Positions 3,037-51,101 of a stretch of 64,000 nt of DNA are shown piece after piece (within the stretch, counting starts at the first letter, position 1; every line of letters starts with the position of its first letter). Origin of the DNA: a virus. The notes beneath the pieces were generated by a model. That model ran no database searches and was not told the DNA's origin. It was given only the letters and a program-made list of their open reading frames with translations. Both the position numbers and the translations under genes were made by a program. The stretch spans positions 224,001 through 288,000 of IMG/VR virus record IMGVR_UViG_3300028840_006907; one strand, given 5' to 3'.

Positions 3037-3039
3037 AAA

Positions 3040-28200: not shown

Positions 28201-31200
28201 ATTATTTAGATTCAACCGATGTGACTCTTAATATAGGGCAAGAATTTCTTATTCGAGTTGAGAATAAATCGGGTGGAGCAATAGTAGATGGTCAAGCAGT
28301 CTACGTCACTGGTTCTAATGAAGATGTCCCTGAAGTAAATCTAGCAAAAGCAGATTCTTCAAATACTTCTGAGGTTTTAGGTATTGCTACTCAGGTAATT
28401 GAAAATGATACGCAAGGTTATGTTACTTGTGCTGGAAAAATACGTAACTTAAATACTAGTGATTGGACTTCAGGAGATTTACTTTATTTATCTGATAAAA
28501 CTGCTGGTGCATTGACCAATGTTCAACCTTCAGGTAATAGTAATATATTTAGTGTTCATATAGGTCTTGTTATAAGATCACATGCTAGCGATGGTGTTAT
28601 TTTTGCTCACCGTCATATTCCTCATTACCGTCCAGAACAGTTAAGAGATACCACTGCATCTTCTTTAACTGATGGTCAGGTTTTATCTTATGAAAGTAGT
28701 ACAGATAGATGGATAAATAGCACTTTACCTTCAATTACACAATCTATAGATAGAAATGAACCTGGTGGTTTTGTCAACAGAACAGACAGTACAGTAGGTT
28801 TTACTGAATCTACTCGTACTTTGCAAGTTACAACCGCGAGTTCTTATGATATCTATCAGGCTGGTACTAAATATACAATTAATGCAACCGATTCTACTCA
28901 AATTCCTGATACAAATGGTTTGCACTATATTTATTTCGATACCACTAATATGACTGTACAAACGAATCCAGCACTTCAGAATATTCTAGATATCATATAT
29001 GAAAAATCTCTTATTGCTGCGATATATTGGAACTCTTCCGATGATAGAGCTATTATAACCAATGATGAACGTCATGGTATTGTGATGGATGGTAGGACCC
29101 ATTCTTATCTTCATACTACTAGAGGAACTCAATATACATCACCAGGCTTAACTCCTGGAGATTTTGATATTGATGGAGCTGGAAGTAATGACAGTGCCAG
29201 TCAAATGAGTATTTCTGATGGGCAAATACAAGATGAAGATATTTGGTTTGAAATTCAAGATGGTAATCCTCAAATATTAGATCCTATAGCTGAAATTCCT
29301 GTTATTTATAAAGATGGTGCAGGAGCTGAATGGAAAATAAAATATTGGACAGCTTCATGGGCATCTGCAACCTCTTATCCTACTGGTACTATAATAAGAG
29401 AGAGTAATTCTTATTTTAGATCTAGTGGAGGAACTTCAGGTGGTGCTCTTCCTGCTTTTTCTGCAAATCGTGAACCAGGTGATACTATTGTTGATAATAC
29501 AATTACGTGGACAAATGTTGGTTCTCCATTGTCTCCTGTGATTAATTTTGTGGGAGGTAATTATAGATTAGCATATAATCAGTTTACTGGTGGGGCATGG
29601 CAACAAACCGAAGTAACAAATGGTAATTATGTTCTTACTCATATATTTGCTACGACTGATATTTTTCATCCTATTATGGCTATTCAAGGTGAGAATGAGT
29701 ATGGTAATGTTGCTGCAGCTAGAGCAGGAGCTTTAACAGAACTAGATAGTATTGTATTGTCTGGATTGGATTTTCCTGAATCAATATTTCTTGCTACAGT
29801 TATTTTTCAGACTAATAATACTTATACTAATCAAGTAAAAGCTCGAACTATCTCAACTGATACAGGTGATGATTTTATAGATTGGAGATTTTCTCAAATC
29901 AATGCAGCCTCAACAGGTGATCAAGGTCCTCAAGGAGAAACTGGTGTTCAAGGGGTACAGGGTGAAACCGGAGTACAGGGTGAAACCGGAGTAGCAGGAG
30001 CAACTGGTGTTCAAGGAATACAAGGCCAGACTGGAATCCAGGGAGAAACTGGAATTCAAGGAGCCACAGGTGTTGCCGGAGCAACTGGTGTTCAAGGGAT
30101 CCAAGGTCAGACTGGAATCCAAGGAGAAACTGGAATTCAAGGAACTACGGGAGTAGCAGGAGCAACTGGTGTCCAAGGAATCCAAGGAGAAACCGGAATT
30201 CAAGGAGAAACCGGAATTCAAGGAGCAACTGGTGTTCAAGGTATTCAAGGAACAACCGGAGTTCAAGGAATTCAGGGAACCACAGGAGTTCAGGGTGAAA
30301 CCGGAGTCCAAGGAATTCAAGGAACCACAGGAATTCAAGGAATTCAAGGAACCACAGGAGTTCAGGGTGAAACCGGAGTCCAAGGAATTCAAGGAACCAC
30401 AGGAATTCAGGGTGAAACCGGAATTCAAGGAATTCAAGGAACCACAGGAGTTCAGGGAACCACAGGAGTTCAAGGAATACAAGGAACCACAGGAGTTCAG
30501 GGTGAAACCGGAGTCCAAGGAATTCAAGGAACCACAGGAGTTCAGGGAGAAACTGGAGTTCAGGGGATCCAGGGTCAGACTGGAATTCAGGGAGAAACTG
30601 GAGTAGCCGGAGCAACTGGAGTACAGGGCCAAACAGGAGTTCAAGGAATCCAAGGTCAAACTGGTATACAGGGAGAAACCGGAGTAGCCGGAGCAACCGG
30701 AGTACAGGGTCAAACAGGAGTTCAAGGAATCCAAGGACAAACTGGTGTTCAAGGAGCAACCGGAGTAGCCGGAGCTACTGGAGTTCAGGGAGAAACAGGA
30801 ATTCAAGGAATCCAAGGACAAACTGGTATACAGGGAGAAACCGGGGTAGCCGGAGCAACCGGAGTACAGGGCCAAACAGGAGTTCAAGGAATTCAAGGAA
30901 ATACTGGTGTTCAAGGAGCAACCGGAGTTCAAGGAACTCAAGGAGATACTGGAGTTCAAGGAACAACTGGTGTTCAAGGTGAAACCGGTTTAGAAGCAGC
31001 TTATCATTTCTTTGCGGATCAGTTGGATAGTCCTAATAATGCTGATTGGGCTGTTAATGCTCTTGCTCCAGCTTCTGCTGATACTACAAATAATGCTCTT
31101 GTTGTACGTCGGTTTGATGATACGGATGAAGAAGGTGTAGGATTTATGGTAAATATTCCAACAGGAAGGACAAATATAGTATTTGGATTTAAGAGTAGGG

Positions 31201-31487
31201 CTGAAACAGCTCCTGGATCGGCGCATAATGTAAAACCAAAGGTATATGTCAGGGAAATACCTGATAATACTACTGTGGAAAGTTGGTCTTCTGGTTATGA
31301 TTTAAATGCTTTAAGTATGCCAACAAATACCTATTTTCAATATGATTCTCAATCTGTAGCTTTTACCGCTCTTGATATTACAGGTGGGAGATTGGCTCAA
31401 TTTGAAGTAACAAGAGATCATACGGGTGTAACTCCTGATTTAACTGGTGACTGGGACTTGCTAGAGCTTAATGTTTCATTTACCTAG
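22251..31487 (+). CDS. giant collagen-like repeat protein (3078 aa) with interspersed duplicated globular domains and a C-terminal non-collagenous domain; probable virion fibre
   Basis: RBS AAGGAG upstream; five long G-X-Y tracts; duplicated domain A (FAGFNYKAKTD... and WAGFSYNAKTD...) and domain B (PNWIDFVPQASAPSH... and VNYIDYEPQDTVPSH...). Confidence 0.8.
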   Translation: MAKTKRKWIELDWYNPNALRAQDIPYDQTESVKDAIDRAASGVLGPTGTTGSTGSTGSTGPTGPTGATGATGAGIQGETGVAGVQGATGTGGGGDTGVQGETGLPGATGIQGTTGIQGTTGIQGETGIQGHTGTVGTTGVQGETGSQGTTGIQGETGVKGETGIQGQTGIAGGAGFPGATGVQGETGVQGTTGVQGETGVQGTTGVAGATGVQGTTGVQGTTGIQGETGVQGDTGVGATGIQGTTGIQGQTGVQGITGAYGGPPGETGVKGETGVQGATGIQGLQGLQGTKGETGTQGIQGQTGVQGETGVQGQTGTGAPGATGVQGQTGIQGTTGIGLGSTGVAGATGIQGTTGVQGRTGVQGFTGAAGLGETGIQGATGVQGATGIQGTTGAGIQGATGISGDTGVQGATGIRGTTGAGIQGATGVQGIQGQTGAQGETGVQGETGIEGSQFAGFNYKAKTDNQSDTDPGIGNLKWSAVAQVTSSELYVDDADVNSTDLSNFYLTLKAADSLRIVRMEDPSQYQIFNITNVTDRTGWFRLSVTPVVSGGSTFSLNDNIILIFSISGPRGQTGVKGETGIQGTTGVAGATGVQGQTGIQGQTGIQGIQGQTGIQGQTGIQGQTGIQGQTGVGAQGATGVAGQTGVQGETGIQGQTGAGIQGTTGVQGVQGLTGVQGQTGAGIQGETGVQGTQGLTGIQGQTGAGIQGETGVQGNTGAFGGPPGETGVQGETGAQGLTGVQGQTGAGIQGATGIQGVTGVQGQTGAGIQGVTGIQGQTGIQGQTGVAGQTGVQGIQGQTGVAGQTGVQGIQGQTGIAGQTGVQGIQGQTGIQGQTGAGIQGTTGVAGATGVQGIQGQTGAGIQGTTGVQGTTGVQGETGTGIQGETGTQGIQGQTGIQGQTGIQGNTGVKGETGVQGFPGPQGTKGDTGAQGIQGETGTQGIQGQTGVAGETGVQGQTGTQGIQGQTGVAGATGAGIQGQTGVQGIQGQTGIQGQTGVQGETGIEGSLWAGFSYNAKTDDQSDTDPGTGNLKWSTVAQVNAGELYVDDTDQYSIDLSNFYLTLKAGDSLRIIRQEDPSQYQIYNITNVTDRTGWFRLSVTYVTSGGSTFSLNDNIILVFVKAGIQGQTGAQGIQGQTGVQGIQGQTGVQGATGTQGIQGPQGQIGLQGTTGVQGETGVQGTQGQTGIQGTTGAGIQGQTGVQGIQGQTGIQGQTGAGIQGATGIAGIDGQTGIQGETGIQGQTGAGIQGATGIAGIDGQTGIQGETGIQGQTGAGIQGETGIQGIQGLTGIQGTTGAGIQGETGVQGTQGQTGVQGQTGAGIQGETGVQGTQGQTGIQGQTGAGIQGVTGIQGIQGQTGIQGQTGAGIQGETGVQGETGIQGQTGAGIQGTTGVQGVQGLTGVQGQTGAGIQGETGVQGTQGLTGIQGQTGAGIQGETGVQGETGIQGQTGAGIQGVTGIQGQTGVQGTTGIQGQTGVGIQGVTGVQGIQGQTGIQGQTGIQGETGVSGATGIQGIQGQTGIQGQTGVQGETGVQGSTGVLGDPNWIDFVPQASAPSHQEARLFYDSTDHSLSYYNEESDVTLNLGRELYIRVYNATVSTITNGQVVYVTGVAAGYPTIDLADGSDLTKTNNIGVATHNIEASTFGYITLFGLVRDINTNAFSAGDEVWLSESTPGGYQSFAGTYAVKIGYVVVSDTLNGSIMVAMGDTEATIAGLNDVNLTSISDGQYLQWDSDSTKWVNVSESPQGDTGIQGATGVQGIQGTTGVQGATGVQGIQGTTGIQGQTGVQGETGIQGTTGVQGETGTAGIDGQTGVQGETGIAGIDGQTGVQGTTGVQGIQGTTGIQGETGTAGIDGQTGVQGETGTAGIDGQTGVQGTTGVQGTTGIQGTTGIQGTTGIQGETGTAGIDGQTGVQGTTGIQGETGVQGTTGIQGETGVQGTTGIQGETGVFGIVNYIDYEPQDTVPSHLEGRTFYDSTDHSLSYYLDSTDVTLNIGQEFLIRVENKSGGAIVDGQAVYVTGSNEDVPEVNLAKADSSNTSEVLGIATQVIENDTQGYVTCAGKIRNLNTSDWTSGDLLYLSDKTAGALTNVQPSGNSNIFSVHIGLVIRSHASDGVIFAHRHIPHYRPEQLRDTTASSLTDGQVLSYESSTDRWINSTLPSITQSIDRNEPGGFVNRTDSTVGFTESTRTLQVTTASSYDIYQAGTKYTINATDSTQIPDTNGLHYIYFDTTNMTVQTNPALQNILDIIYEKSLIAAIYWNSSDDRAIITNDERHGIVMDGRTHSYLHTTRGTQYTSPGLTPGDFDIDGAGSNDSASQMSISDGQIQDEDIWFEIQDGNPQILDPIAEIPVIYKDGAGAEWKIKYWTASWASATSYPTGTIIRESNSYFRSSGGTSGGALPAFSANREPGDTIVDNTITWTNVGSPLSPVINFVGGNYRLAYNQFTGGAWQQTEVTNGNYVLTHIFATTDIFHPIMAIQGENEYGNVAAARAGALTELDSIVLSGLDFPESIFLATVIFQTNNTYTNQVKARTISTDTGDDFIDWRFSQINAASTGDQGPQGETGVQGVQGETGVQGETGVAGATGVQGIQGQTGIQGETGIQGATGVAGATGVQGIQGQTGIQGETGIQGTTGVAGATGVQGIQGETGIQGETGIQGATGVQGIQGTTGVQGIQGTTGVQGETGVQGIQGTTGIQGIQGTTGVQGETGVQGIQGTTGIQGETGIQGIQGTTGVQGTTGVQGIQGTTGVQGETGVQGIQGTTGVQGETGVQGIQGQTGIQGETGVAGATGVQGQTGVQGIQGQTGIQGETGVAGATGVQGQTGVQGIQGQTGVQGATGVAGATGVQGETGIQGIQGQTGIQGETGVAGATGVQGQTGVQGIQGNTGVQGATGVQGTQGDTGVQGTTGVQGETGLEAAYHFFADQLDSPNNADWAVNALAPASADTTNNALVVRRFDDTDEEGVGFMVNIPTGRTNIVFGFKSRAETAPGSAHNVKPKVYVREIPDNTTVESWSSGYDLNALSMPTNTYFQYDSQSVAFTALDITGGRLAQFEVTRDHTGVTPDLTGDWDLLELNVSFT
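22380..23590 (+). repeat. collagen-like G-X-Y triplet-repeat tract 1 of the 3078-aa gene
   Basis: Direct reading of GxTGxQG codon periodicity. Confidence 0.9.
23950..25260 (+). repeat. collagen-like G-X-Y triplet-repeat tract 2
   Basis: Direct reading. Confidence 0.9.
25610..26870 (+). repeat. collagen-like G-X-Y triplet-repeat tract 3
   Basis: Direct reading; near-identical 60-nt blocks repeated. Confidence 0.9.
27490..28100 (+). repeat. collagen-like G-X-Y triplet-repeat tract 4 (GTAGIDGQTG subtype)
   Basis: Direct reading. Confidence 0.9.
29920..30980 (+). repeat. collagen-like G-X-Y triplet-repeat tract 5
   Basis: Direct reading. Confidence 0.9.
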
Positions 31488-31498
31488 AAGGAGTATTA

Positions 31499-32656
31499 AT
31501 GCCCGAATGGGGAATAGATACCGCAGGTACTACAACAACGACGCCGAATTGGTGTCGTGCTATGGGTGGAACCTCTCCCAATATAGACAATATGCTTTTA
31601 AAAAGTGTGTCTATATATGTAGGTTCTACTCATACTCAACAAATCCGATTAGCAGTTTATTCTGGTGGTAATTTAACGACAGGTCCTGATGGTGCAACTC
31701 TCGTTTATGATGCTGGGGTGACTTCTGGCACGGCTTTAAACACATGGTTAACTATAAATATTCCTACTGAAGTAATTCTTCCTAAAAATGCTGTGACATG
31801 GGTAGCATTTAGAAATAATGGTGGTTATATAATCCATTATTATGGTACCAGTCCAGCCGGAAATGATTTTCAAACTGCTCGTGGTAGATATAGCTCTACT
31901 GTTCTTGATGGAGATGAAACTTCAGCTTTTCCTTCTACATGGCCTTCTGATGGTGGAGCTTTTGCTGCTTTTTGGTATTCTACATATATTATTTATCAAA
32001 TAAGATATTATGGAGGATTATTTTTCGAATCATCGAGTAGTATGTATTTATCTTCCGTATCATCATTTACTCCTCCTGCAAATTGTTCTGTCTCTTTTTG
32101 GCTCTTTCATAGTAATGATGGTGGCACTCCTAGAATAGTTAGCCATAGTGATAATTGGGAAATATGGATAAATGCAAGTAATCAAATATCTAATGATATG
32201 AATTGGGGTACTTCTTTGGTATCTAGTGCTACTATTAATACTAATACACGATATTATATAGTATGTACAAGAGCTTCTGACAATACTTTACAAATATATG
32301 TAAATGGCCAATTTGATAATTCTAGTAGTGGTGGAACAGGTTCACCAGGATCGGCCACGTTTTATGTAGGTGTTAAACAAACATTATTACAATATTTTGA
32401 TGGTTATATAGAAGATTTAAGAATTTATAATAGAGTCCTTTCAGCAAATGAAATAGCCACTATTTATGGCTGTAAAGGAACAGATTCCATTACTTATGGC
32501 TTAATTCATAAATGGCCTATGCAAGAAAAGGCAATAGATGTGGTTGCTAGTGGAACCGGGTCTATAATAGATTTAGGTCCAAGTAGACTAGATTTGACTC
32601 CTAATAATAATCCTACTTATTCTGGAACACAATTGAAATTTAAAAGGTTTGGATAA
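31499..32656 (+). CDS. LamG/concanavalin A-like lectin domain protein, probable fibre-associated or receptor-binding
   Basis: C-terminal FYVG...FDGYIEDLRIYNRVLSANEIATIY, typical LamG-like jelly-roll ending; paralogous C-terminus shared with next three genes. Confidence 0.6.
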   Translation: MPEWGIDTAGTTTTTPNWCRAMGGTSPNIDNMLLKSVSIYVGSTHTQQIRLAVYSGGNLTTGPDGATLVYDAGVTSGTALNTWLTINIPTEVILPKNAVTWVAFRNNGGYIIHYYGTSPAGNDFQTARGRYSSTVLDGDETSAFPSTWPSDGGAFAAFWYSTYIIYQIRYYGGLFFESSSSMYLSSVSSFTPPANCSVSFWLFHSNDGGTPRIVSHSDNWEIWINASNQISNDMNWGTSLVSSATINTNTRYYIVCTRASDNTLQIYVNGQFDNSSSGGTGSPGSATFYVGVKQTLLQYFDGYIEDLRIYNRVLSANEIATIYGCKGTDSITYGLIHKWPMQEKAIDVVASGTGSIIDLGPSRLDLTPNNNPTYSGTQLKFKRFG

Positions 32657-34878
32657 TGGGTAAACAAATTTTTAGTTCAGAGGGTTCCGATACTTTCACT
32701 GTACCAAAAGGAGTGACTTCCATTACTGTCAAGGCATGGGGTGCAGGAGCTGGTGGTGGAGGGGGTGGAACGGCTAGTGTTGGTGGAGCCGGAGGTGGTG
32801 GAGGTTATGTTCAGGGTGATATATCTGTAACACCTGAAGAAACCCTTAATATTCATGTAGGTGGAAATGGAGGTTTAGGAACTTTTACAGGTACCGCAGC
32901 TTCTGGTGGTGGGGGAGGAGGTAAATCTTCAGTTTACAGAAGTACAACTCCTTTATTTGTAGCTGGCTCTGGAGGAGGCGGAGGTGGTGGTGATAATTCA
33001 TCAGGGACTCCGGCGGGAGCCGGAGGTGCTGGTGGAGGAAGTACTGGTGGGTCTGGTGGTTCTTCCGGAGGAGCTAGTGGCGGTAGTGGTGGCACTCAGT
33101 CAATTGGTGGAACACAGGGTTCTGGAGGTCAAAATGCAGGAGTTTTTGGAAAAGCTCGTGCAGAAACCACTTTAAATAATGCCTTAAATTTTGATGGTGA
33201 TCCTGAATATGTTACAATAGGAACAGATTCTGTTTTTAATTTTACTAATTCTTTTACCCTTGAATGTTGGATTAAACCCGATAATGTAACAGGATCTAAA
33301 AGGGTAATAAGTTCAAGATCATCTGATACCAATAATGGAGTTGGATTTGGTATTAACGGTAACAATCCTGCTTTTACAACATATGGTAAACAAGATTTTA
33401 CTTCTACTGGAACCGTTTCAGCAGGAGTTTGGGCTCATATAGCAGTAGTCTTTACTTCAGGTAATAATGCAAGATTTTATATAAATGGAGAGTTTATAAA
33501 TCAGGTAGACGGTACCCAAGCAGCTACAACTTCTGGTATATATATGGTTCTTGGTATGCTTGGTTTTTATGATGATGAACAATATTGGGTAGGTGAACTT
33601 GATGAAATAAGAATGTGGAATGATGAGCGTACTGATAAAGAGATATCTGATTATTATGCTCAAACTCTTACAGGTAGTGAAGCAAACTTAGTCGCTTACT
33701 ATAAATGTAATGAATCATCAGGTACAAATCTTCCCGACGAAACCACAAATAGTAATGATGGCACACTCCAAAATATGGAAGATGCTGATTGGGTTACATC
33801 AAGTTGGTCTCCATTGACAGACGCTGCTGATGCTGGGGCTGGTGGTGACGGTGGAATGGGTACTGGCACTGGGGGTGGTGGCTCTGGTGGCACAACATAT
33901 GGCGGTGATGGTGGAATTGGTGATAGTGGTGGCACCCCTGGATTTTCTGGCGGTGGCGGAGGCGGTGCAGGCTATGGTGGAGGTGGCGGGGGATCATGTT
34001 CGGTTTCTGGCGGAGACGCTGGTGGTGGTGGGGGCGCTGGCTCTAGCTATATTATAGGTACCGCTACGTCAACTACCAATACGCAAGCATCAGGCCAGAA
34101 TCCACCTAATACGGGCGACCCAGACTATACTGGTTCTGTAGGAGTTGGAGGAAATGGGGGTAGTACAAGTACAAATGGGAATAATGGTAATGATGGTTTA
34201 ATAGTTATCAGTTGGGTTGACCCTCCAGCATATATAGGTATGAAATTTGAATCAGATAGTTCACAATTTTTGTCTTCTGTAGCAAATTTTACCGCTCCTT
34301 CTAGTACAACTGTTACATTTTGGTTATCTTCTACTAATCTCACAGGATTAAAAAGAATTATTGGTTGGTCCGATTTTTGGGAAATAAAGACGATTGATAA
34401 TGATATATCTAATGATTTAAATGGAGAGTTAACCACTTATTCTACAACTCCATTAGATCTTAATACTCTTTATCATGTTGCTTGTACATATAATTCCTCT
34501 GATGATGCTGCGAAAGTATATATAGATGGGTCTCTTGATGGTACGGGTTCAAATACTGAAACTCCTTCTGGAACAACACTACAAATAGGTTTTAGACCTG
34601 GTGCACCTGACGGTTATTTTGACGGTTATTTAGGTGATATAAGAATTTATGATAGGGTTTTATCTGATTTTGAAATAGCCACAATTCATGCATGTCGAGG
34701 AACTGATGGAATAGTCCATGGTTTACGTAATAGGTATTTATTAAATGAAAGAGCAATGAATGTTGCTGCTGATGGGACAGGTTCGGTTAAAGATATGGCT
34801 CAGGATCAATTAAACATGACTCCAAATAATAGTCCTGTTTATGAAGGAACAACATTAAAATATAGAAGGATGGGTTGA
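32656..34878 (+). CDS. glycine-rich protein with two LamG-like domains (paralog family)
   Basis: N-terminal TFTVPKGVTSITVKAWGAGAGGGGGG glycine-rich domain; LamG-like FYINGEF...WVGELDEIRMWN and FDGYLGDIRIYDRVLSDFEIATIH. Confidence 0.65.
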   Translation: MGKQIFSSEGSDTFTVPKGVTSITVKAWGAGAGGGGGGTASVGGAGGGGGYVQGDISVTPEETLNIHVGGNGGLGTFTGTAASGGGGGGKSSVYRSTTPLFVAGSGGGGGGGDNSSGTPAGAGGAGGGSTGGSGGSSGGASGGSGGTQSIGGTQGSGGQNAGVFGKARAETTLNNALNFDGDPEYVTIGTDSVFNFTNSFTLECWIKPDNVTGSKRVISSRSSDTNNGVGFGINGNNPAFTTYGKQDFTSTGTVSAGVWAHIAVVFTSGNNARFYINGEFINQVDGTQAATTSGIYMVLGMLGFYDDEQYWVGELDEIRMWNDERTDKEISDYYAQTLTGSEANLVAYYKCNESSGTNLPDETTNSNDGTLQNMEDADWVTSSWSPLTDAADAGAGGDGGMGTGTGGGGSGGTTYGGDGGIGDSGGTPGFSGGGGGGAGYGGGGGGSCSVSGGDAGGGGGAGSSYIIGTATSTTNTQASGQNPPNTGDPDYTGSVGVGGNGGSTSTNGNNGNDGLIVISWVDPPAYIGMKFESDSSQFLSSVANFTAPSSTTVTFWLSSTNLTGLKRIIGWSDFWEIKTIDNDISNDLNGELTTYSTTPLDLNTLYHVACTYNSSDDAAKVYIDGSLDGTGSNTETPSGTTLQIGFRPGAPDGYFDGYLGDIRIYDRVLSDFEIATIHACRGTDGIVHGLRNRYLLNERAMNVAADGTGSVKDMAQDQLNMTPNNSPVYEGTTLKYRRMG

Positions 34879-34881
34879 TAA

Positions 34882-37173
34882 ATGGGACAGCAATCTTTCA
34901 GTACAGCCGGTTTAACTTCATTTCAAGTTCCTGTTGATATTACATCTATAACGGTAAAGTGTTGGGCTGGTGGAGCTGGTGGAGGAGCCGGGGGGACTTC
35001 TGGTGTTGGAGGAGTGGGTGGCGGTGGTGGCTATGTTCAGGGAGATATAACCGTCACTCCTTCGGAAATACTTAGTATTCATCTTGGGGGTGCTGGGAAT
35101 TCAGGAAGTTTTGGAGGAACTTCTGGTTCTGGAGGTGGTGGTGCTGGTCTATCTAGTGTCTCGCGTGGCTCAACACCTTTATTTGTAGCCGGAGCAGGTG
35201 GGGGAGGCGGTGGTGGAGACAATAGTAATCCGGCTGCTGGTGGAGCTGGTGGGGCAGGAGGTTCCTCTACCGGAGGAACTGGAGGCAGTTCTCTAAATGC
35301 CAATGGAGGAACTGGTGGAAGTCAAGTATCTGGTGGTACTGGTGGTACTGGTGGTATAGTTTCAGGTGCTGCTGGAGGTGCCCCTATTTCTGCAGCAGCT
35401 AATTTTGGTAATTGCCTTGACTTTGATGGAACAGATGAATGGGTCTCTTCAGCTAATTCTTATTCTAATCCTCAGACTTTTACAACTGAGTTATGGTTTA
35501 AAACTACCACTACTTCAGGAGGATTATTAATTGGTTTCGGAAACAGTCAAACAGGAACTTCTACCAGTTATGACAGAAGGATCTGGTTAAGTAATTCCGG
35601 AAATGTCTATTGTGGAGTTTATGCTGGATTAATTTTAGGAGTTCAGACGGTAAATTCTTCTGGTACATATAATGATGGAGAATGGCATCATGTTGCAATG
35701 GTCCATGACTCTGGAGGGTTTGAATTATTTGTTGATGGTATATCACAAGGAACAAATGCAAATCCTTCACAAGATACTTTTACAGGTTACTGGCGACTCG
35801 CAGGAACTACGGTTTGGTCGGGATGGTCTCCTGCTCCTACTAATAATTATTATGTAGGTCAAATTGATGAAGTCAGATTTTGGCAAGAAGCTCGAACAAC
35901 TTGTCAATTAATAAATAATGCAAATAAATATTTAGCTGGAACTGAGACTAATTTAGCTTTTTATTGGAAATTAAATGAATCTTCCGGTTCTACCGCAAAT
36001 GATGAAACTACCAATAATAATGATGGCACACTCCAAAATATGGAAGATGCAGACTGGGTTACTTCTAGTTGGAGTGGTAAGTGGATAGGTATTGGTACTG
36101 GAGGTGATGGTGGAGACGGTAATGATGGAGGGACTACTAGAGGATCAGAGGCTAATGGAGGTATCACTTGTGCTGGATCAGGTGGTACAGCCGATGTCGG
36201 TGCTGCTGGTTATGGTGGCGGTGGTGGCGGTGGCGCTGGTTACGGTGGAGGTGGAGGAGGCTCGGCTTCTCAAGCTTCAAATGCTGGTGGAGGTGGTGGA
36301 GGAGGTGGCTCCAGTTATATAATTGGTTCTGCTACGTCAACTACCAATACGCAAGCTTCGGGACAGAATCCTCCCAACACAAGCGACCCGGACTATACTG
36401 GTTCTGCAGGAGTTGGTGGAAATGGGGGTGCTACAAGTACTGCAGGATCAAATGGTAATAATGGTTTGATTGTTATTAGTTGGACAGAACCTCCGACATA
36501 TGTTGGGATAACATTTGTAGCGAGTAGTTCTCAAAGATTGGCATCAGTAGCAAATTTTACTCCTCCTCAAAATTGCTCCGTATCATGGTGGTTAAAACTA
36601 TCTTCGTTGAATCAGTTTGGGAGGACAGCAAGTCTAAGTGTTAATTGGGAAATAGGTCTATCTGATAATGCAGGTACTCCTACTGCTAATGGTATTATTA
36701 ATGCTATGAATAGTGGTGCTCTTTTGTATTCTTCAACAAGTCTTCAAGCTGATCTTCGTTATCATGTTGTATGTACAGCAACTTCTAGTGCCCGTCAAAT
36801 ATTTTTAAATGGTGTTCTTGATAATAGTGCTGCTTCTGGAGGGACTGCTCCTGCAGCAGGGACTCTTTATGTTGGATGTCAATATGGTGGAACTCTATAT
36901 TTTCTTGATGGGGCTATAGAGGATTTAAGGGTATATAATCGGATAATTACTGCAGAAGAAGTGGCTACAATTTATGCTTGTGAAGGAAGAGACGGTATAA
37001 CATATGGCTTAATACATCGATGGCCTATGAATGAAGGTGCAGCAGGTGTTGTAGCGAGTGGTACTGGTTCTGTAAAAGATGAGGCTACAAATCAATTGAA
37101 TTTAACTGCAACTAATAGTCCAGTTTATTCTGGATCACAATTGAATTATAGACGAAAATATAGGACTCATTAA
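34882..37173 (+). CDS. glycine-rich protein with two LamG-like domains (paralog of 32656-34878)
   Basis: Colinear with previous gene: FQVPVDITSITVKCWAGGAGGG..., LamG-like motifs, shared SSYIIG.ATSTTNTQASGQNPPNT block. Confidence 0.65.
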   Translation: MGQQSFSTAGLTSFQVPVDITSITVKCWAGGAGGGAGGTSGVGGVGGGGGYVQGDITVTPSEILSIHLGGAGNSGSFGGTSGSGGGGAGLSSVSRGSTPLFVAGAGGGGGGGDNSNPAAGGAGGAGGSSTGGTGGSSLNANGGTGGSQVSGGTGGTGGIVSGAAGGAPISAAANFGNCLDFDGTDEWVSSANSYSNPQTFTTELWFKTTTTSGGLLIGFGNSQTGTSTSYDRRIWLSNSGNVYCGVYAGLILGVQTVNSSGTYNDGEWHHVAMVHDSGGFELFVDGISQGTNANPSQDTFTGYWRLAGTTVWSGWSPAPTNNYYVGQIDEVRFWQEARTTCQLINNANKYLAGTETNLAFYWKLNESSGSTANDETTNNNDGTLQNMEDADWVTSSWSGKWIGIGTGGDGGDGNDGGTTRGSEANGGITCAGSGGTADVGAAGYGGGGGGGAGYGGGGGGSASQASNAGGGGGGGGSSYIIGSATSTTNTQASGQNPPNTSDPDYTGSAGVGGNGGATSTAGSNGNNGLIVISWTEPPTYVGITFVASSSQRLASVANFTPPQNCSVSWWLKLSSLNQFGRTASLSVNWEIGLSDNAGTPTANGIINAMNSGALLYSSTSLQADLRYHVVCTATSSARQIFLNGVLDNSAASGGTAPAAGTLYVGCQYGGTLYFLDGAIEDLRVYNRIITAEEVATIYACEGRDGITYGLIHRWPMNEGAAGVVASGTGSVKDEATNQLNLTATNSPVYSGSQLNYRRKYRTH

Positions 37174-37220
37174 TTATAAAATTTACATATAAGATCTATA
37201 TAACATATAAGGAGGTTCAA

Positions 37221-37736
37221 ATGTATAAAACAGCATTAGTATGTGGAGTCTGGGACAAATTGCATGAAGGGCATAAAAATATAATTAAATATTCTATAGA
37301 AAATTCTGAATTACTGAAAATTTTTGTATTAGAAATTAATATACATGATAGACATGAAGAGCCTTTTATACCTTATGAAGAAAGAAAAAAAACAGTCGAA
37401 AATTATGTCCTTTCTTTAGGGGCAAGAGATAAGGTACAAATAATAGGAAAAAAAGATGCTACGGAAGTTATGGTATTGGATGAATTGAGAACTGTAGATT
37501 GCGCCTTTGCTTGTGCTAAAGATAAAAATCAGCAAATTTTAGAAATGATAAAAATAACTCAAGATAGAGTTGCTAAATTAGAAGGCCCTGATGGACGTAA
37601 GCCATTTGTTATGGAATGGGTAGATCCTGTGAAAAATGATGAAGGAAAAATAATCTCTTCAAGTAAATACAGGAAAAAAAGCCGTTTAGAAAAAGAAAAG
37701 AGAGTAAATTCTTCAGGTGGATATGGTCGATTTTAA
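37221..37736 (+). CDS. putative nucleotidyltransferase (cytidylyltransferase-like HxGH family)
   Basis: N-terminal CGVWDKLHEGHKNII matches G.FD..H.GH signature; 171 aa. Confidence 0.45.
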   Translation: MYKTALVCGVWDKLHEGHKNIIKYSIENSELLKIFVLEINIHDRHEEPFIPYEERKKTVENYVLSLGARDKVQIIGKKDATEVMVLDELRTVDCAFACAKDKNQQILEMIKITQDRVAKLEGPDGRKPFVMEWVDPVKNDEGKIISSSKYRKKSRLEKEKRVNSSGGYGRF

Positions 37737-38959
37737 TGGCACAATATAAAGTTCGTACATCTAATGCTAACCAAGGCCAGTATATGAAAAATGCTGGCTC
37801 TCGAACTACTACTGGTCCATTACAATTTGGGAGATCTGGTAAAGGAACAGCAAATGATGTTCGAATAGCTTTAAGATGGCAACCAAATATAGATATGACT
37901 GGTAAATATATGATAGTTACTTCTGCCTATATTCGTGTTACAAGAGAGACTGAAGATACTGGCGCATTTACAGCTACAGTTAGAGTGCATAATGGTTCTG
38001 CTCCTGATTTATCTACAACTGATTTAGCTTGGGGTTATTCTGATATAGGTTATTCTCAATCATGGTCGATAGCAGATTCATGGAGTGCTGATACTGAATT
38101 TACTTCACCTGATATGAAAAGCGCAGTACAAGCTTGGTTTAATAGGAGTGCTCATTCAAGTACGGATTGGATTGGTTTCATTATTGATGATGGTGATTCT
38201 GCTGATGATGAATATAAAGGAGTCTATGATGCTGATCATTCTACTTCAAGTTATCGTCCTGAATTAGAAATAAATTATAAAATATATTCAGGAGGAGATA
38301 ATGGTGGATTATCTTTTACAGCATCGAGTTCTCAGTATTTGGAATCAGTTAGTAATATTACACCTCCTGCAACATCTTCAGTATCTTTTTGGATTTATTT
38401 AACTGAATTGAATCAATTTGGTCGAACTATTAGTCGATTTGCTTATGAAATTGGTCTATCAGATAATGCCGGATCTCCTCCTAATGGGATAGTTAATGCT
38501 ATGACTAGTGGAACTATACTTGTATCAAGTTCTCTTACAGTGAATACCCTTTATCATTGTGTTTGTACGGCCTCATCTACTGCTCGACAGATATATCTTA
38601 ATGGAGTATTGAATACTTCAGGAGGTGGTGGTACGGTATCAACAGCAGGGACTATGTGGATCGGGTCACAAGATGGTGTTGATTTTTTCCTATCTGGTCA
38701 TTTAGAAGATATACGAATTTATAATCGTATCCTTACATTAGCTGAAGTTCAAACTATTTATGCTTGCCAAGGCTCAGATAGTATTACTTATGGATTAATT
38801 CATAGATGGCTTATGAATGAGGGTCCGATAAGTTCGGTAGCAAGTGGTACTGGACTAGTAAAAGATTATGGGATAAATCAAGTAAATATGACTCCATTTA
38901 ATAGTCCAGTTTTTTTAGGAACTCAAATGAAAAATAGGAATAAGTATAGGACCCATTAG
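37736..38959 (+). CDS. LamG-like domain protein (paralog family)
   Basis: C-terminal FWIYLTELNQFGRT...IYLNGVL...LEDIRIYNRILTLAEVQTIYAC homologous to neighbours. Confidence 0.6.
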   Translation: MAQYKVRTSNANQGQYMKNAGSRTTTGPLQFGRSGKGTANDVRIALRWQPNIDMTGKYMIVTSAYIRVTRETEDTGAFTATVRVHNGSAPDLSTTDLAWGYSDIGYSQSWSIADSWSADTEFTSPDMKSAVQAWFNRSAHSSTDWIGFIIDDGDSADDEYKGVYDADHSTSSYRPELEINYKIYSGGDNGGLSFTASSSQYLESVSNITPPATSSVSFWIYLTELNQFGRTISRFAYEIGLSDNAGSPPNGIVNAMTSGTILVSSSLTVNTLYHCVCTASSTARQIYLNGVLNTSGGGGTVSTAGTMWIGSQDGVDFFLSGHLEDIRIYNRILTLAEVQTIYACQGSDSITYGLIHRWLMNEGPISSVASGTGLVKDYGINQVNMTPFNSPVFLGTQMKNRNKYRTH

Positions 38960-39048: not shown

Positions 39049-40779
39049 ATGGCAGATGTATTAAATAGAACAACGAAAGAACAGAGGTTCAGTGTTCATA
39101 CTCCCGATTATTCAGTAGTAGACTGGATAATAAATCCAGATCTATCCGGAGTGATTGGAGTCCCAGTAAAATATTGGAAAATAGATGGTGATGTTGTTTC
39201 AGAGATGAATCAATCTGAAAAAGATGCGGTTGATAGTGCTCTATTGCCTGGTATAAAAACAGCTAAAAAAGCTTCTTTAAGAACAGAGGGTGACCAATTA
39301 ATAGAAAATCAAGGCTATTCAGCAGGTAAACAAAGATCATTAATTTCTCAGCATTCTAAAAGTACTAAAATGAAACCCAAAAGAGAAAAGTATGTTAGAG
39401 ATTTTATGGATTGGATTGAGCAAGTAGATGAAGAAGTCGTATTAAAACAAGATTTGGTAGATGATCAGACTTCAGAAGCAGGAGTAAATTCTGTTATTTT
39501 AGATTCTGCAGGTCTTATTGCTGCTGATCCTGGTGTTACCATTTCAGGTACTCTTGATACTACAGATAGTTCTAGCTTAGATAATTATCTTGATACAAAT
39601 GCTGAAGTGACTGATCCATTAACCGGTATTGTAGGTCCGTGGGATCAAATGCAGATATTAAATCATCGACGTGAAATATATAATGACTCATCAAATCCAA
39701 TTTATTGGCCTGATAATACTGCCATTTTAGGTTCGGGAGGTTATTTAGAAGATCATGCCAATCGGATTAATAATCTTGAAGTGATTCATGGAAAGTTAGG
39801 TTGGCATAATCAATTAATAACTCAAGCGACTTATACTCGACCTAAAGATCTGCTCATTTATTATGGGTGGTTAAACTCTTATAATTCAGGAATTCTTTCT
39901 TGGAACAATGAGAGCGTGGCTCAGCATATGGCGAGATATAGTCTTCTTGTTTTTGGAGACGGTATTCAGGATCCTGGCCATGGAGATTATGCCAATACTC
40001 AAGTTATTGTTCCACGTGTAAAGGCTTTAAGTTGTTATTCTGAAATTTATGGCTATGTAACTGTTGATCAAACTTTTAGTGATTTTACTTCAAAAGTTGA
40101 TCAATGGGATACCTTACAAGTAGATGGAATATTTTTAGATGAAGCGGGTTATGATCATGGTCGGACTCGGGATGAATTTAATCAGAGAGTAGATTATGTC
40201 CATGGCAAAACTTATGCTAATAAATGTTTTGCTAATGCTTGGAATACAGATCATATTTTAGGAATAACCAATGATCCTAGTTATCCTGATTCTACATATA
40301 ATGACTCTTGTGCTGAATCTAATTTAACTTTAAACGATTGGATTCTTCTTGAAAGTTTTCCTGTCAATACTACAGCATATGCAGCAAATGATGGGTATGA
40401 ATCTATCAGTGATTGGGCCACAAGAGGAGTAAAAGCGAAAGATTTAAGAGCTACATATGGTGTAAATTTTGCCAGTGTTAGTATGATTTCCAATGACCAT
40501 ACAGATAATACTGCTTTATCTAACTTTGCCTTTACTTCTTCGATGATGTTTTCATTAGAAGGTCATGGAACCTCAGATACCAATTATGCTGCTAGTTCTG
40601 CTAGGGTTAATTATTTTCCTCGTCCAGATATCACACAAATGGGAGTTGTTTATAGCTTAAATTGTTCTGTCCAAATTGATGCGAATGATTCGTCAGTCTA
40701 TCATAGATATACACCGAATGCTAAAATGTCGTTAGATTTTTCTGATGGTGCTCATACAAGTACTATAGCAAAATTTTAA
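39049..40779 (+). CDS. hypothetical protein, paralog of 41276-42208 over its C-terminal ~300 aa
   Basis: Shared blocks LLIYYGWLN.YNS, VLVFGDGIQDP.HGD.ANTQ, DGIF.DEAGYD, NAWN.DHILGI. Confidence 0.55.
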   Translation: MADVLNRTTKEQRFSVHTPDYSVVDWIINPDLSGVIGVPVKYWKIDGDVVSEMNQSEKDAVDSALLPGIKTAKKASLRTEGDQLIENQGYSAGKQRSLISQHSKSTKMKPKREKYVRDFMDWIEQVDEEVVLKQDLVDDQTSEAGVNSVILDSAGLIAADPGVTISGTLDTTDSSSLDNYLDTNAEVTDPLTGIVGPWDQMQILNHRREIYNDSSNPIYWPDNTAILGSGGYLEDHANRINNLEVIHGKLGWHNQLITQATYTRPKDLLIYYGWLNSYNSGILSWNNESVAQHMARYSLLVFGDGIQDPGHGDYANTQVIVPRVKALSCYSEIYGYVTVDQTFSDFTSKVDQWDTLQVDGIFLDEAGYDHGRTRDEFNQRVDYVHGKTYANKCFANAWNTDHILGITNDPSYPDSTYNDSCAESNLTLNDWILLESFPVNTTAYAANDGYESISDWATRGVKAKDLRATYGVNFASVSMISNDHTDNTALSNFAFTSSMMFSLEGHGTSDTNYAASSARVNYFPRPDITQMGVVYSLNCSVQIDANDSSVYHRYTPNAKMSLDFSDGAHTSTIAKF

Positions 40780-40788
40780 GAGGATTTT

Positions 40789-41262
40789 ATGGATGTTTTA
40801 TTTGATGTTTATGATTCTGTTGGGGGTGTAGATGTTGATAGTGCTGTAACAGTATTATTTGATACTTCGAGATATATATGTAATAATGTGTCTTTATTAT
40901 CAGGAGAAATTAATATCTTACCTAATTCTCATAGTATAATTCCTCCAGACAATGATATCTTATTACTTATGGCAAAAGTTACAATAGATGCTGTTAGTGG
41001 GAATAATCAAACTCAAGCAAAGATATGGCTCGAAGTTGACACAGGTTCAGGTTATGTAGTGGTACCTGGAACTGATAGTTATTCTTATAGTATTTCAAAT
41101 AGTGTGGGTCATGGTACTGCTATTATAAATACCACATATCAAATTAGTAAATTAAATAAGATTATTTGTAAATTTAGAGTTAGAGCAGAAAAATCAGTGG
41201 GGAATAATTCTTTAAGTACACTAGCTCAAGCTAGTAATTTCATAGGTTTAATTAACGAATGA
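40789..41262 (+). CDS. hypothetical protein
   Basis: 157 aa ORF with RBS-like GAGG upstream. Confidence 0.45.
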   Translation: MDVLFDVYDSVGGVDVDSAVTVLFDTSRYICNNVSLLSGEINILPNSHSIIPPDNDILLLMAKVTIDAVSGNNQTQAKIWLEVDTGSGYVVVPGTDSYSYSISNSVGHGTAIINTTYQISKLNKIICKFRVRAEKSVGNNSLSTLAQASNFIGLINE

Positions 41263-41275
41263 GGGAGGATTATTT

Positions 41276-42208
41276 ATGAGACCAAAGAACCTGTTAATTT
41301 ATTATGGGTGGCTTAACGCTTATAATAGCGCAGAAAATCAATGGCAAAATGAGAACGTGGCGATTGACCTTTGTAAATATAATGTACTCGTTTTTGGAGA
41401 TGGGATTCAGGATCCAAGTCACGGGGATTTTGCAAATACTCAAGCAATACTCGCTCGAATCAGGGAATTAAACCCAGCTTCATTGATTTTCGGTTATGTG
41501 ACTGTAAACCAATCTATAACAGATTTTACTACAAAAGTAGTATTATGGAATGATCTTGAAGTTGACGGCATCTTTATGGATGAAGCAGGCTATGATTATG
41601 GGAAAAATCGTGCTGAGTTAAATAGTCGTATTGATGTTGTCCATAGTCAAGAGACAGCAAATACATGCTTTTTAAATGCTTGGAATATTGATCATATTCT
41701 TGGTATAGAAGAAGATTCAAATTTTCCTAATGCCACTTTTAATCCAGGTTTAGTAGATTCTAATGCTTATGAAGATGATTGGTATTTATTAGAAAGTTTT
41801 GCCGTTAATACTTCAGCTTATGGTACAAATGATGGGTATGCTAATGGAAGTGAATGGGTTGTTCGTGGAAATAAAGCTATAGAAAAACGAAAAGAATATG
41901 GTATAAAGTTAGCCTCAACTGGAATTATTAATGATGATAATCCTGAAGGTCAGAGTTTATTTGATTTTTGTTATAGGTCTGCATTGGCTTTTAGTTTAAA
42001 TGCCAATGGTACTTCGGATGCTTTTTATGGAGCTAGTTCTGCAGCTACTAAATATTGGGATCGTCCTAAACCTTATCATTTCACCAAAGAGGAAGAATTT
42101 TCTGTAGTGGAAGATCAGAAGACAGCTAATGCTTATATTAGATTTTTTCCATTCATGAAAGTAACTCTTAATTTCGGAACCAATAGTTCATCTATATTAA
42201 GATGGTAA
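41276..42208 (+). CDS. hypothetical protein, paralog of 39049-40779
   Basis: Same conserved blocks as 39049 gene; GAGGGAGG upstream. Confidence 0.55.
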   Translation: MRPKNLLIYYGWLNAYNSAENQWQNENVAIDLCKYNVLVFGDGIQDPSHGDFANTQAILARIRELNPASLIFGYVTVNQSITDFTTKVVLWNDLEVDGIFMDEAGYDYGKNRAELNSRIDVVHSQETANTCFLNAWNIDHILGIEEDSNFPNATFNPGLVDSNAYEDDWYLLESFAVNTSAYGTNDGYANGSEWVVRGNKAIEKRKEYGIKLASTGIINDDNPEGQSLFDFCYRSALAFSLNANGTSDAFYGASSAATKYWDRPKPYHFTKEEEFSVVEDQKTANAYIRFFPFMKVTLNFGTNSSSILRW

Positions 42209-42782: not shown

Positions 42783-43141
42783 TAACTGAAATTGATGATG
42801 ATAGTAAAGACATAAAGATAAAATTAGGAAATTTATTTGAAAAATATGAAAATCTTTATCGGGAAGGGAATAGACAGTTTAGAACAGAGAGAATAGCTTC
42901 TGCTGGGTCAATGGATGGTCTGGAAGAATTTCGTCGTTTGATGCTTATTGTAAAAAGAAATAAGGATGTAGTGGCCTCGCTAATGCGGGGTATAGCTAAT
43001 TTTAGGTCTATTTCAAATTTTAAGTTTGTAGAAGAGGAAGTAGAAATTTCAAAACCGAAACCAAAGAAAACAAAGAAAGCTACTCCTGAAAAAGTGATCA
43101 TACCTATACCAATAGTAGCGGAGGAATTTAATGGCGAATAA
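42761..43141 (+). CDS. hypothetical protein
   Basis: 126 aa ORF overlapping neighbours by a few codons. Confidence 0.4.
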   Translation: MPDFNKLITEIDDDSKDIKIKLGNLFEKYENLYREGNRQFRTERIASAGSMDGLEEFRRLMLIVKRNKDVVASLMRGIANFRSISNFKFVEEEVEISKPKPKKTKKATPEKVIIPIPIVAEEFNGE

Positions 43142-46100: not shown

Positions 46101-46484
46101 ATTTTGGATATTCTTAATATTGATCCTGATGCGACCAGGGAAAAGATTGAACAAGATCTGTTTACTGTTAATGATAGTCTTTTCAATGAAATGATGAGAA
46201 ACCTTTATACAAATGTGGCTGCCCCACTTGTAGAGGAAACTAATGTTACTGAGAAATTGGCTAAATATCTTCATTTAGAAAAGACTGAAAAACCTGAGGC
46301 CACAGAAGGTGAATCTCGATTTAGTTCTGTTAATGGAAAGGATTACAGGAAAAAGCTTTCAAAAGTCATGAAATACTTTATTGATAATCCTGAAAAATTA
46401 AATTCCATTTTTGCAAAGAATGGACAGTTAAAACCTAAACAAGCGAGAAATAATCAATGCGTTGTCGCTCAATCCCGGAATTAA
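43131..46484 (+). CDS. putative portal protein interrupted by an intein (extein about 630 aa)
   Basis: AGGAAT/GGAGG upstream; host protein ~630 aa leads a head-gene cluster; intein motifs inside (see mobile_element). Confidence 0.5.
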   Translation: MANKRIRVVTAQDNVPKRATRRKVVSRDTNPKVTNLTDNEKRARRIATTTSMGFGLRSASDIVNSSEANFYSPQLSTDFLEKPQNLRERRAFYRFFYNTNEIIGQSIDIHSTLPLSKLRLVPPKGRNKHQNNYVFKFFQKMCDEMKLFKTLIEITHEYFLFGNCLAKYAEVKTPFGYKEAKEIEVGDFLLTDKGRYRKVLKKCVRPSENVLKVKCWKDFRELPVSEEHPIEILKDDGFVFAQAEELSLNDYIRVTWPTEISDKEYVPFEFTDKYTKVENGYELKFEVLRTRNPHAFRARKELLSWLSSLSKPVIRTRKQLSEDFDVPLSTLNNVIYKLGKELDVKFHERIGASGFQKGSQVKWFPIEDIEVTDSYSIHKTLFLDAIDGIDINNDFAYLAGYWLGDGTLARDSQRGTWGRGLWQISVDQEFEGLNRIRSILHNFFGSGNVIEWNSGNLLYLKVISNPAFLEWWAENFGETSFGRNYKRIPEWFIKLPMEKLQNFLAGLIDSDGCISVSGENQKCITNISMASRNIMDSVRDITLKCGVVVNYNEGTEREVTLPQGDKCFSKKMYTVTASDEESCKILTQYATKSIPVDAQFSEMGRYWIRTDSGLAFKIKSIKTEEYNDLVYNFEVEEDHTYQVAGFSTHNCFIFAEEDDWKEGITTENIGQKKEEAKQRSQLLKDKFDIKDKNPLYKGWKKLLILPPDQVRVRKLPLTDEVAIEYMPDPETRKFLTSDIPIDPTDPTRRLDYSISNELREKVRQSGVIPLDTDPYTGSHVFHLARKKSQYEPLGVSIVERCINTLVLMDKLRQAQTSIASRHMTPMRVVWAEDLNSDDVDNLREQVDLALVDPDFSIIANYEIHWEEMGSNGRLLDVEAEMESSLNRLFAGLGVTREMLTGEGTYTGSRVSLEIMNTMYLLFREVLQDYIENTLFKPIAKKKGFIEYDEYGNETLLYPKISFTRLAIRDNEQYFDAAFQLYQKGSISIDLILDILNIDPDATREKIEQDLFTVNDSLFNEMMRNLYTNVAAPLVEETNVTEKLAKYLHLEKTEKPEATEGESRFSSVNGKDYRKKLSKVMKYFIDNPEKLNSIFAKNGQLKPKQARNNQCVVAQSRN
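43620..45080 (+). mobile_element. intein (487 aa) with LAGLIDADG homing endonuclease domain, in frame within the putative portal gene
   Basis: N-terminal splice Cys (FGN/CLAKYAEV); block B SEEHP; two LAGLIDADG motifs (FAYLAGYWLGDGT and LQNFLAGLIDSDGCI); C-terminal block VYNFEVEEDHTYQVAGFSTHN followed by +1 Cys. Confidence 0.85.
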
Positions 46485-47257: not shown

Positions 47258-47317
47258 GATTAATAATCTTCTAATAATGCTTTAAAAGGCAACAATAATA
47301 AATAAAGGTATTTAGCG

Positions 47318-50989: not shown

Positions 50990-51101
50990 GTGAAAAAAAG
51001 TTAAGTACAATAGTTTCAATTATTAATAATCTTTTAATATTGGTATGATGGACAACAAAAAAGATTAAAAATAAAAGATAAATATTCATAGGAGGTTAAA
51101 C

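Follow-up and report, generated by a model that had tools for sequence, protein, structure and literature searches.

Tandem, recombining receptor-binding paralogs are a familiar theme among phages. Phages with multiple receptor-binding proteins, such as CBA120 and phiK64-1, carry several tailspike or fibre paralogs per virion, and the gp37-gp38 pair of the T-even phages consists of the genes for a fibre and its tip adhesin. In cyanophage Pam3, a TNF-like, glycine-rich unit of gp24 forms the distal, receptor-binding end of a fibre, and its non-glycine loop tips were proposed to be the binding site (PMC9608196). Bxb1 gp33 and gp29, like S16 gp38, have been noted to contain polyglycine-II bundles (PMC13243192), and Laminin G3 lectin domains have been described in jumbo phages in association with tail fibres and further parts of the virion (Iyer et al. 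2021, PMC7824862). As a general principle, it is well established that phage fibres carry lectin-like domains and that receptor-binding genes occur as diversified tandem copies. Here, we analyzed a gene cluster at positions 31499–38959 of a 64,000-nucleotide (nt) stretch of viral DNA (IMG/VR record IMGVR_UViG_3300028840_006907, positions 224,001 to 288,000), the whole of which is referred to as the window. The cluster encodes four LamG proteins, P1 to P4, and follows the gene for a giant collagen-like fibre protein. What is unusual at this locus is the combination: a LamG domain is nested in a glycine-rich domain with a predicted TNF-like/polyglycine (TG) fold, a register-shifted LamG unit terminates all of the paralogs, and modules are very freely fused and nested in this lineage of huge phages. 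We favour the reading, and give it about an even chance, that these genes form a variable cassette for modular lectin-like adhesins, which are associated with the fibre, dock by way of a conserved C-terminus and turn variable lectin-like faces towards the host surface.

The modules of these proteins are designated by the letters A, C, D, E, G (the glycine-rich domain), L (the nested LamG) and X, where G(L) denotes a G interrupted by L; L-numbers refer to related metagenomic contigs and P0-numbers to homologous proteins. The fibre gene and the five genes of the cassette are as follows.

22251–31487, plus strand: giant collagen-like fibre gene, 3078 amino acids (aa); Pfam Collagen, E 6e-225, 22 stretches
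31499–32656, plus strand: P1, 385 aa; domain A (31499–32008, residues 1–170), then C (32009–32656)
32656–34878, plus strand: P2, 740 aa; N-terminal half of G (32656–33177), L (33178–33813), C-terminal half of G (33814–34230), C (34231–34878)
34882–37173, plus strand: P3, 763 aa; N-terminal half of G (34882–35409), L (35410–36066), C-terminal half of G (36067–36498), C (36499–37173)
37221–37736, plus strand: nucleotidyltransferase gene, 171 aa; PF01467 (CTP_transf_like), E 2e-7
37736–38959, plus strand: P4, 407 aa; N-terminal domain X (37736–38299), then C (38300–38959)

The five cassette genes are on the same strand and tightly packed, their spacing ranging from a 1-nt overlap to 47 nt. The initial annotation, which was made from the sequence alone, had placed the cluster right after a giant fibre gene; the gap proved to be 11 nt, and the same order recurs in related phages. 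It had also described four consecutive LamG genes, and the boundaries of the four were exact, but the 171-aa CTP_transf_like gene lies between the third and the fourth. By its family matches, which include NCBIfam adenylyl/cytidylyltransferase models below their cut-offs, the 171-aa protein is a cytidylyl/adenylyltransferase-like nucleotidyltransferase and not a LamG paralog, and it has no counterpart in L015, L016 and L018. With the whole cluster as the query, megablast retrieved nothing from 50,697 reference phage records.

All four paralogs scored above the gathering cut-off of Laminin_G_3 (PF13385; 27.6 bits): P1 with E 3.5e-22 and 79.6 bits (residues 179–320), P2 with E 3e-45 and 154.5 bits (two stretches), P3 with E 2.4e-36 and 125.6 bits (two stretches) and P4 with E 1.4e-17 and 64.6 bits (residues 199–339), which gives six LamG domains altogether. 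At the C-terminus, P1–P4 share module C (approximately 215–224 aa), with pairwise identities of 43–61% at the aa level and 54–66% at the nt level. The 3′ ends of the genes were found independently by a DNA repeat finder as four 273-nt copies with 61–71% identity (family D1). The motif F.DG...DLRIYNR.L...E.ATIYAC.G.D.I.YGL, quoted in the initial annotation, is present in this module, as are basic C-terminal tails (KFKRFG, YRRMG, YRRKYRTH and NRNKYRTH). An AlphaFold2 model was made for one of the four paralogs, P3 (16 homologs), and had a mean predicted local distance difference test score (pLDDT) of 71.8, with both LamG regions at 80–95. When this model was compared with the PDB using Foldseek, laminin LG, neurexin LNS, pentraxin and PAPP-A LamG domains were matched with a probability of 1.0, as was the Bacteroides carbohydrate-binding protein BACOVA_03559. 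A jelly-roll fold, which structure prediction had been expected to reveal, is thus supported by the P3 model and by the Laminin_G_3 match in all of P1–P4. Viral structure matches included a Synechococcus phage "structural protein" and a "putative adhesin" of phage PaBG, and the PHROG matches included the LamG-bearing "virion structural protein" families phrog_8510, phrog_18802 and phrog_701. Searches with single cassette proteins against PDB sequences returned only weak LamG or pentraxin matches, and tblastn of the C module against the 50,697 reference phage records returned none.

The concanavalin-like fold includes glycoside hydrolases, and P1–P4 might accordingly be imagined as enzymes (glycanases or lyases) or non-structural proteins in or on the infected cell, with LamG domains serving as carbohydrate-binding modules for a catalytic part. 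Weakly Spherulin4-like (glycosidase-related) paralogs are encoded just downstream, and relatives carry a DNRLRE-type domain, a type that often accompanies polysaccharide-degrading enzymes. However, no catalytic family in Pfam, NCBIfam or PHROGs matched P1–P4, their best structural matches are the non-enzymatic LG, LNS and pentraxin domains, and the N-terminal domain of P4 has no DNRLRE match; we give this explanation hardly any credence. The DNRLRE-type domain is module D (NCBIfam NF033679), which was matched by the N-terminal domains of four of six relatives (best E 5.7e-11). Domain X of P4 had been suspected by eye to belong to the same type, but it did not match NF033679 and scored 3.8 bits with a profile of the six relatives' domains. 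Just two homologs of X were found in 5.8 billion proteins, and a D/X profile retrieved nothing useful from PDB sequences. Domain A of P1 matched no Pfam family and likewise gave nothing useful in a PDB sequence search; it recurs inside P0098, P0100, P0102, P0101 and P0008, and P1 orthologs with an identical A-C layout are P0003, P0004, P0006 and P0007.

Module C runs approximately 65 residues beyond the Pfam LamG domain (YGLIHRWPMNEG...SGTGSVKD...LTPNNSPVYSGTQLKYRR). In the P3 model, this extension forms four additional strands (pLDDT 74–89), and only the last 10 or so basic residues are disordered. A profile of C searched against 1.84 billion cluster representatives yielded 241,125 matches, topped by giant multi-repeat LamG_3 proteins. 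In giant tandem-LamG proteins, the match often extends through the C-extension segment, indicating that this segment normally links one LamG_3 repeat to the next, and the inner LamG of P2 and P3 is trailed by a similar segment (NLVAYYKCNESSGT...). The first element of the C unit is the "FDG" strand, and its last is this linking segment. The cassette proteins resemble the LamG_3 virion proteins of jumbo phages and cyanophages in belonging to the same Pfam family, with scores above threshold in P1–P4, but differ from them in that a single register-shifted terminal unit is common to several small paralogs, whereas the repeats of the former lie in one giant protein.

Comparison with related contigs showed that the backbone around the cassette is conserved and consists of a giant collagen-like gene, the cassette, genes for proteins of 576–578 aa, approximately 160 aa (missing in L015) and 310–323 aa, and the portal gene. 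Flanking genes are 53–85% identical between the window and L015, L016 and L018, whereas the content of the cassette differs. In the window, L002, L007, L011, L015 and L018, the C-module gene or genes are immediately preceded by a giant collagen-like gene. The size of the cassette ranges from one to nine genes, with the following compositions.

Window: A-C, G(L)-C, G(L)-C, the nucleotidyltransferase, X-C
L015: E-C, G-C, G(L)-C
L016: D-G(L)-C, G(L)-C
L018: A-G-C(L) only
L007: D-G(L)-A-C only, a single protein of 1091 aa
L002: nine tandem stand-alone C genes after a collagen-like open reading frame (ORF)

The nine C genes of L002 (NCBI GCA_012974965.1, a 211.8-kb contig) encode 127–245 aa each at 1193–7513 and are followed by genes for a DUF4376 protein, a 1233-aa glycosyltransferase and a caspase-like peptidase. 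Module orders in other homologs include D-G(L)-A-C (P0098), A-G-C(L) (P0100), G-A-C (P0102) and G-C (P0099). Nesting is frequent, with L found inside G, inside C (P0100) and inside A (P0101), and in P0008 a domain A is nested in the C-terminal extension of C. In nearly all cases C is at the end of the protein. The description of the cluster as a cassette was borne out, in that both gene number and domain composition vary among relatives with 53–85% identical flanks. As expected for receptor-binding proteins, the order next to the fibre gene is kept in relatives and turnover is faster than that of the flanks.

The nine stand-alone C copies in L002 look more like a decoration than a defined fibre tip. 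They are in keeping with a different explanation, in which the paralogs are virion decoration lectins on the fibre or the capsid that do not set host range, but adhere weakly and reversibly to extracellular polysaccharide, biofilm matrix or particles and raise the encounter rate, unlike receptor-binding proteins that trigger infection. LamG_3 is a generalist adhesion domain, as its numerous matches among cluster representatives illustrate, and often occurs in giant multi-repeat surface proteins; the giant fibre genes of the window, moreover, lie in a head-gene neighbourhood, between terminase and portal. On the other hand, phage TG domains are known from tail-fibre tips and tail-tip assemblies (PMC9608196; PMC13243192), and the order of a fibre gene followed by a small adhesin gene resembles that of tail fibre/adhesin pairs. 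We regard decoration as unlikely, though it deserves to be kept in view.

P2 and P3 contain 21% glycine, concentrated at residues 1–175 and about 390–540. In the homologs P0099, P0100 and P0102, the two glycine-rich blocks are joined directly, with approximately 10 non-glycine residues at the junction, indicating that the inner LamG of P2 and P3 is an insertion in a loop. The initial annotation had recognised long poly-glycine N-terminal domains in two of the proteins; the glycine-rich blocks are indeed there, but they are halves of a single domain split by a second LamG. Weak matches of the domain to Gly_rich_2 (PF21722) were obtained with P0099 (E 0.07) and P0102 (E 0.009), and precomputed matches exist for PF21722 in P0091, P0092, P0093 and P0097 and for PF12810 in P0110 and P0120. 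A Pfam scan of P3 gave no match to PF21722, and neither did an artificial join of the glycine-rich halves of P3 match Pfam. Tblastn of the domain against the 50,697 reference phage records found none, for which low-complexity filtering is a possible cause.

The uninterrupted G of P0099 (residues 1–307) was modelled with a pLDDT of 48 and a predicted template-modelling score of 0.54, the beta core being confident. All of the top 24 Foldseek matches of this model, each with a probability of 1.0, were to TG domains of ALK or LTK, to the Pam3 fibre or to a chain of the Bxb1 tail tip, and the probability of the subsequent matches was at most 0.13. On the basis of this model, the glycine-rich domain is predicted to have the ALK/LTK TG fold. 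ALK/LTK TG domains (PF12810/PF21722) took ranks 1–3 and most of the top 24, with 20–30% identity over 114–170 columns; they are, however, cytokine-binding receptor domains of animals, while the domain in the window is split by a LamG and scores below the Pfam cut-off. S16 gp38 was not among the listed fold matches, whereas the Pam3 fibre was. Pam3 gp24 (PDB 7YPX/7YFW) and S16 gp38 (PDB 6F45) have in common with this domain a TNF-like beta-sandwich with long glycine-rich loops, whose non-glycine tips form the receptor-binding site in gp24 and gp38 (PMC9608196), and both are encoded, like the cassette, next to a fibre gene or partner. Unlike them, the TG domain of P2 and P3 has a whole LamG in one glycine loop, another LamG after it and no helical anchor before it. 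The nested LamG may be seated at a loop tip of the receptor-binding type; the glycine loops were predicted at a pLDDT below 50 in both the P3 and the P0099 models.

Residues 3–165 of P2 also matched phrog_863 ("tail fiber assembly") with E 5.8e-7, and the cassette genes lie directly 3′ of the fibre gene, as do the genes of chaperones, which would suit an explanation in which the proteins are fibre assembly chaperones or removable caps outside the mature particle, analogous to T4 gp38, Tfa proteins and Pam3 gp25. The phrog_863 match presumably reflects the glycine-rich, adhesin-type gp38 of S16 and T2 and not the chaperone type, and in that case counts against this explanation. Four large multi-lectin paralogs with fast-diverging cores are also unlike an expected chaperone, and the known ones are small, helical or beta-sandwich proteins (PMC9608196). 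A chaperone or cap role therefore appears very improbable.

The modules differ in how fast they diverge. P2 and P3 are 64–68% identical in the halves of G, 34% in L, 36% in the C core and 54% in the C extension. Between P3 and its ortholog P0090 (69% identical overall), the corresponding values are 69–77%, 77%, 54% and 65%, the C core being the least conserved part in this comparison too. Among 15 C modules, conservation is poor over the first two-thirds (majority-residue frequency, 0.31–0.45) and highest at the positions matching residues 680–759 of P3 (0.54–0.73). The diversification of paralogs that had been claimed was thus recovered, with the LamG cores as the fastest-diverging parts. Pairwise alignment, proposed together with the ratio of non-synonymous to synonymous substitutions (dN/dS) as a check, supported the shared C module at 43–61% aa identity, but gave no sign of positive selection: dS among the paralogs is about 0.9–1.5, which is near saturation, and dN/dS is about 0.3–0.55, values that are unreliable at such saturation. 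Judged by this divergence, the paralogs are old. At the L/G junction, a 72-nt segment (33736–33807 versus 36001–36072; repeat D11) is 89% identical between P2 and P3, whereas the L cores are approximately 34% identical. This junction is consistent with recombination events that exchanged L at conserved borders. The repeat finder detected no template/variable repeat pair of a diversity-generating retroelement in 31400–64000, where reverse transcriptase genes were not specifically searched for; the repeats found in this region are paralogous gene segments with 61–89% identity.

Under the adhesin reading, each protein would combine one or more variable N-terminal binding modules with a single LamG module, common to all, at the C-terminus. 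The best-conserved portion of C, comprising the last LamG strand and a helix, the four-strand extension and the disordered basic tail, would dock every paralog on the same virion site, most likely the C-terminal end, itself conserved, of the fibre protein whose gene precedes the cassette. The last 200–500 aa or so of the fibre protein are 49–78% identical in L015, L016, L018 and L007, which makes this region the obvious candidate for the docking partner. The fast-diverging LamG cores, the TG domain and other beta-rich modules would face outwards and bind polysaccharide or protein of the host surface, and several paralogs, together with module exchange by recombination at conserved junctions, would provide several or alternative binding specificities. 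The shared C module would then probably serve for docking, as the constant element, no less than for binding, and P1–P4 would be putative virion components that dock through their C-terminal end. In outline, this is in line with the receptor-binding cassette proposed in the initial annotation, which is thereby supported in part. In the presence of tandem host-binding paralogs by a fibre gene, in modular exchange and in variable gene number, the cassette resembles CBA120, phiK64-1 and the gp37-gp38 pair. In those systems, however, as is usual for receptor-binding proteins, docking is through the N-terminal part and the variable part that binds the receptor is C-terminal, whereas the polarity here is reversed, with a shared C-terminal module and differing N-terminal domains (A, TG or X). 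Moreover, no trimeric beta-helix or tailspike fold was seen in the cassette proteins.

Several observations weigh against this reading. We infer docking through the C end from its conservation alone, and P0092 and P0101 lack C. Module C is one LamG_3 unit in a shifted register and not a separate family. No recognisable N-terminal anchor, coiled coil or trimerisation domain was found in P1–P4, and in P2 and P3 the TG domain begins as early as residue 2, whereas that of Pam3 gp24 lies C-terminal to a helical anchor. As for the TG domain itself, PF21722 matched residues 9–164 of P2 with E 2e-4 and 21.8 bits, below the cut-off of 24.3 bits; a profile of the glycine-rich domain found nothing among PDB sequences; and the model that shows the fold has a low overall confidence (pLDDT 48) and is that of the homolog P0099, not of a protein in the window.

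A bolder version, which we think distinctly unlikely, is that C acts as a universal plug on the phage's own collagen-like fibre, perhaps on sugars added by the phage, so that the fibre is branched and its binding heads (TG with a nested LamG, A, X and other domains) can be swapped, fused or nested almost freely. If true, this would represent a reversed-polarity, lectin-mediated assembly of a multi-specific adsorption organelle. The sugar component of this idea can also be taken separately: C may be a lectin for sugars that phage glycosyltransferases put on the threonine-rich collagen-like fibres, in which case the glycosylated coat of fibres would be what the paralogs attach to, bundle or cap. 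Such a sugar-coated collagen-like fibre would resemble O-glycosylated BclA. Glycosyltransferase/methyltransferase genes are present at 19016–21643 and 61866–63947, a nucleotidyltransferase gene lies within the cassette, glycosyltransferases adjoin the cassette in L002 and L007, and the collagen repeats are rich in G-x-T; the glycosyltransferase genes together with these repeats suggest that the fibres may be glycosylated. Nevertheless, docking or cross-linking through self-glycans is pure inference, the conserved part of C is the C-terminal extension and not the usual ligand rim of LamG, and the nucleotidyltransferase is absent from relatives. We see only a slim chance for it.

Huge phages are almost all uncultured and their host recognition is largely unknown, and under the adhesin reading the locus provides a testable candidate for the adsorption apparatus of one such lineage. 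Within an otherwise conserved block of structural genes, a limited set of modules rich in beta structure (LamG, TG, A, D, X and E) is recombined, fused and nested. If the conserved C end is a docking element, it could serve as a marker for such adhesins in metagenomes and as a handle for displaying binding domains. Few polyglycine-II proteins are known, and the architecture of a LamG nested in a polyglycine domain would extend their number by a new example.

The source of the window is a huge uncultured phage of about 389–470 kb. The window belongs to a 388,651-bp contig (JGI metagenome 3300017963), and its proteins recur on a 469,617-bp contig. Genes for a large terminase, a portal and a prohead protease are among those of the window, indicating a huge tailed phage. 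The giant fibre protein matches the NCBIfam collagen-like adhesin models Lcl/Scl. Within its gene, position 23994 is the sole mismatch in 21,158 nt relative to JGI contig Ga0180437_10000019: the codon is CAA (Gln) in the window and TAA (stop) in the JGI copy, where the fibre gene is split into 581 and 2404 aa. The TAA could be a nonsense variant in the population or a sequencing error. A second giant collagen-like gene (3040–10053, 2337 aa) lies directly 3′ of the large terminase gene (1144–3036), and its product combines Collagen with a BNR/PSII_BNR-like propeller region. The product of 19016–21643 is a multidomain protein with methyltransferase, GT2, TPR and GT9 domains, and that of 61866–63947 has GT2, TPR and methyltransferase domains.

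Downstream of the cassette lie the following conserved neighbours.

39049–42208, plus strand: genes for proteins of 576, 157 and 310 aa, in that order

These neighbours are 53–81% identical in L015, L016 and L018 and constitute the conserved 3′ border of the variable cassette. The 576-aa (39049–40779) and 310-aa (41276–42208) proteins are paralogous (49% identity over 313 aa) and gave weak, sub-threshold matches to Spherulin4 (PF12138); given the link to Sph3/GH135, they may be glycosidase-like. The portal gene (43131–46484, 1117 aa) bears a LAGLIDADG/Hom_end-type intein, and the portals of relatives, which are 612–630 aa long, align to it only outside the insert. Scans for promoters and terminators found fewer sites than in shuffled sequence and thus carry little information. 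An AT-rich 48-nt intergenic motif occurs at 47259–47306 and 51022–51069 (75% identity), upstream of two genes of the structural region, and may be a shared regulatory element. Finally, a tandem repeat rich in Glu and Lys (51480–51725, units of approximately 90 nt) lies within a 277-aa ORF (51102–51935) after the protease gene, the product of which resembles a scaffold-like low-complexity protein.

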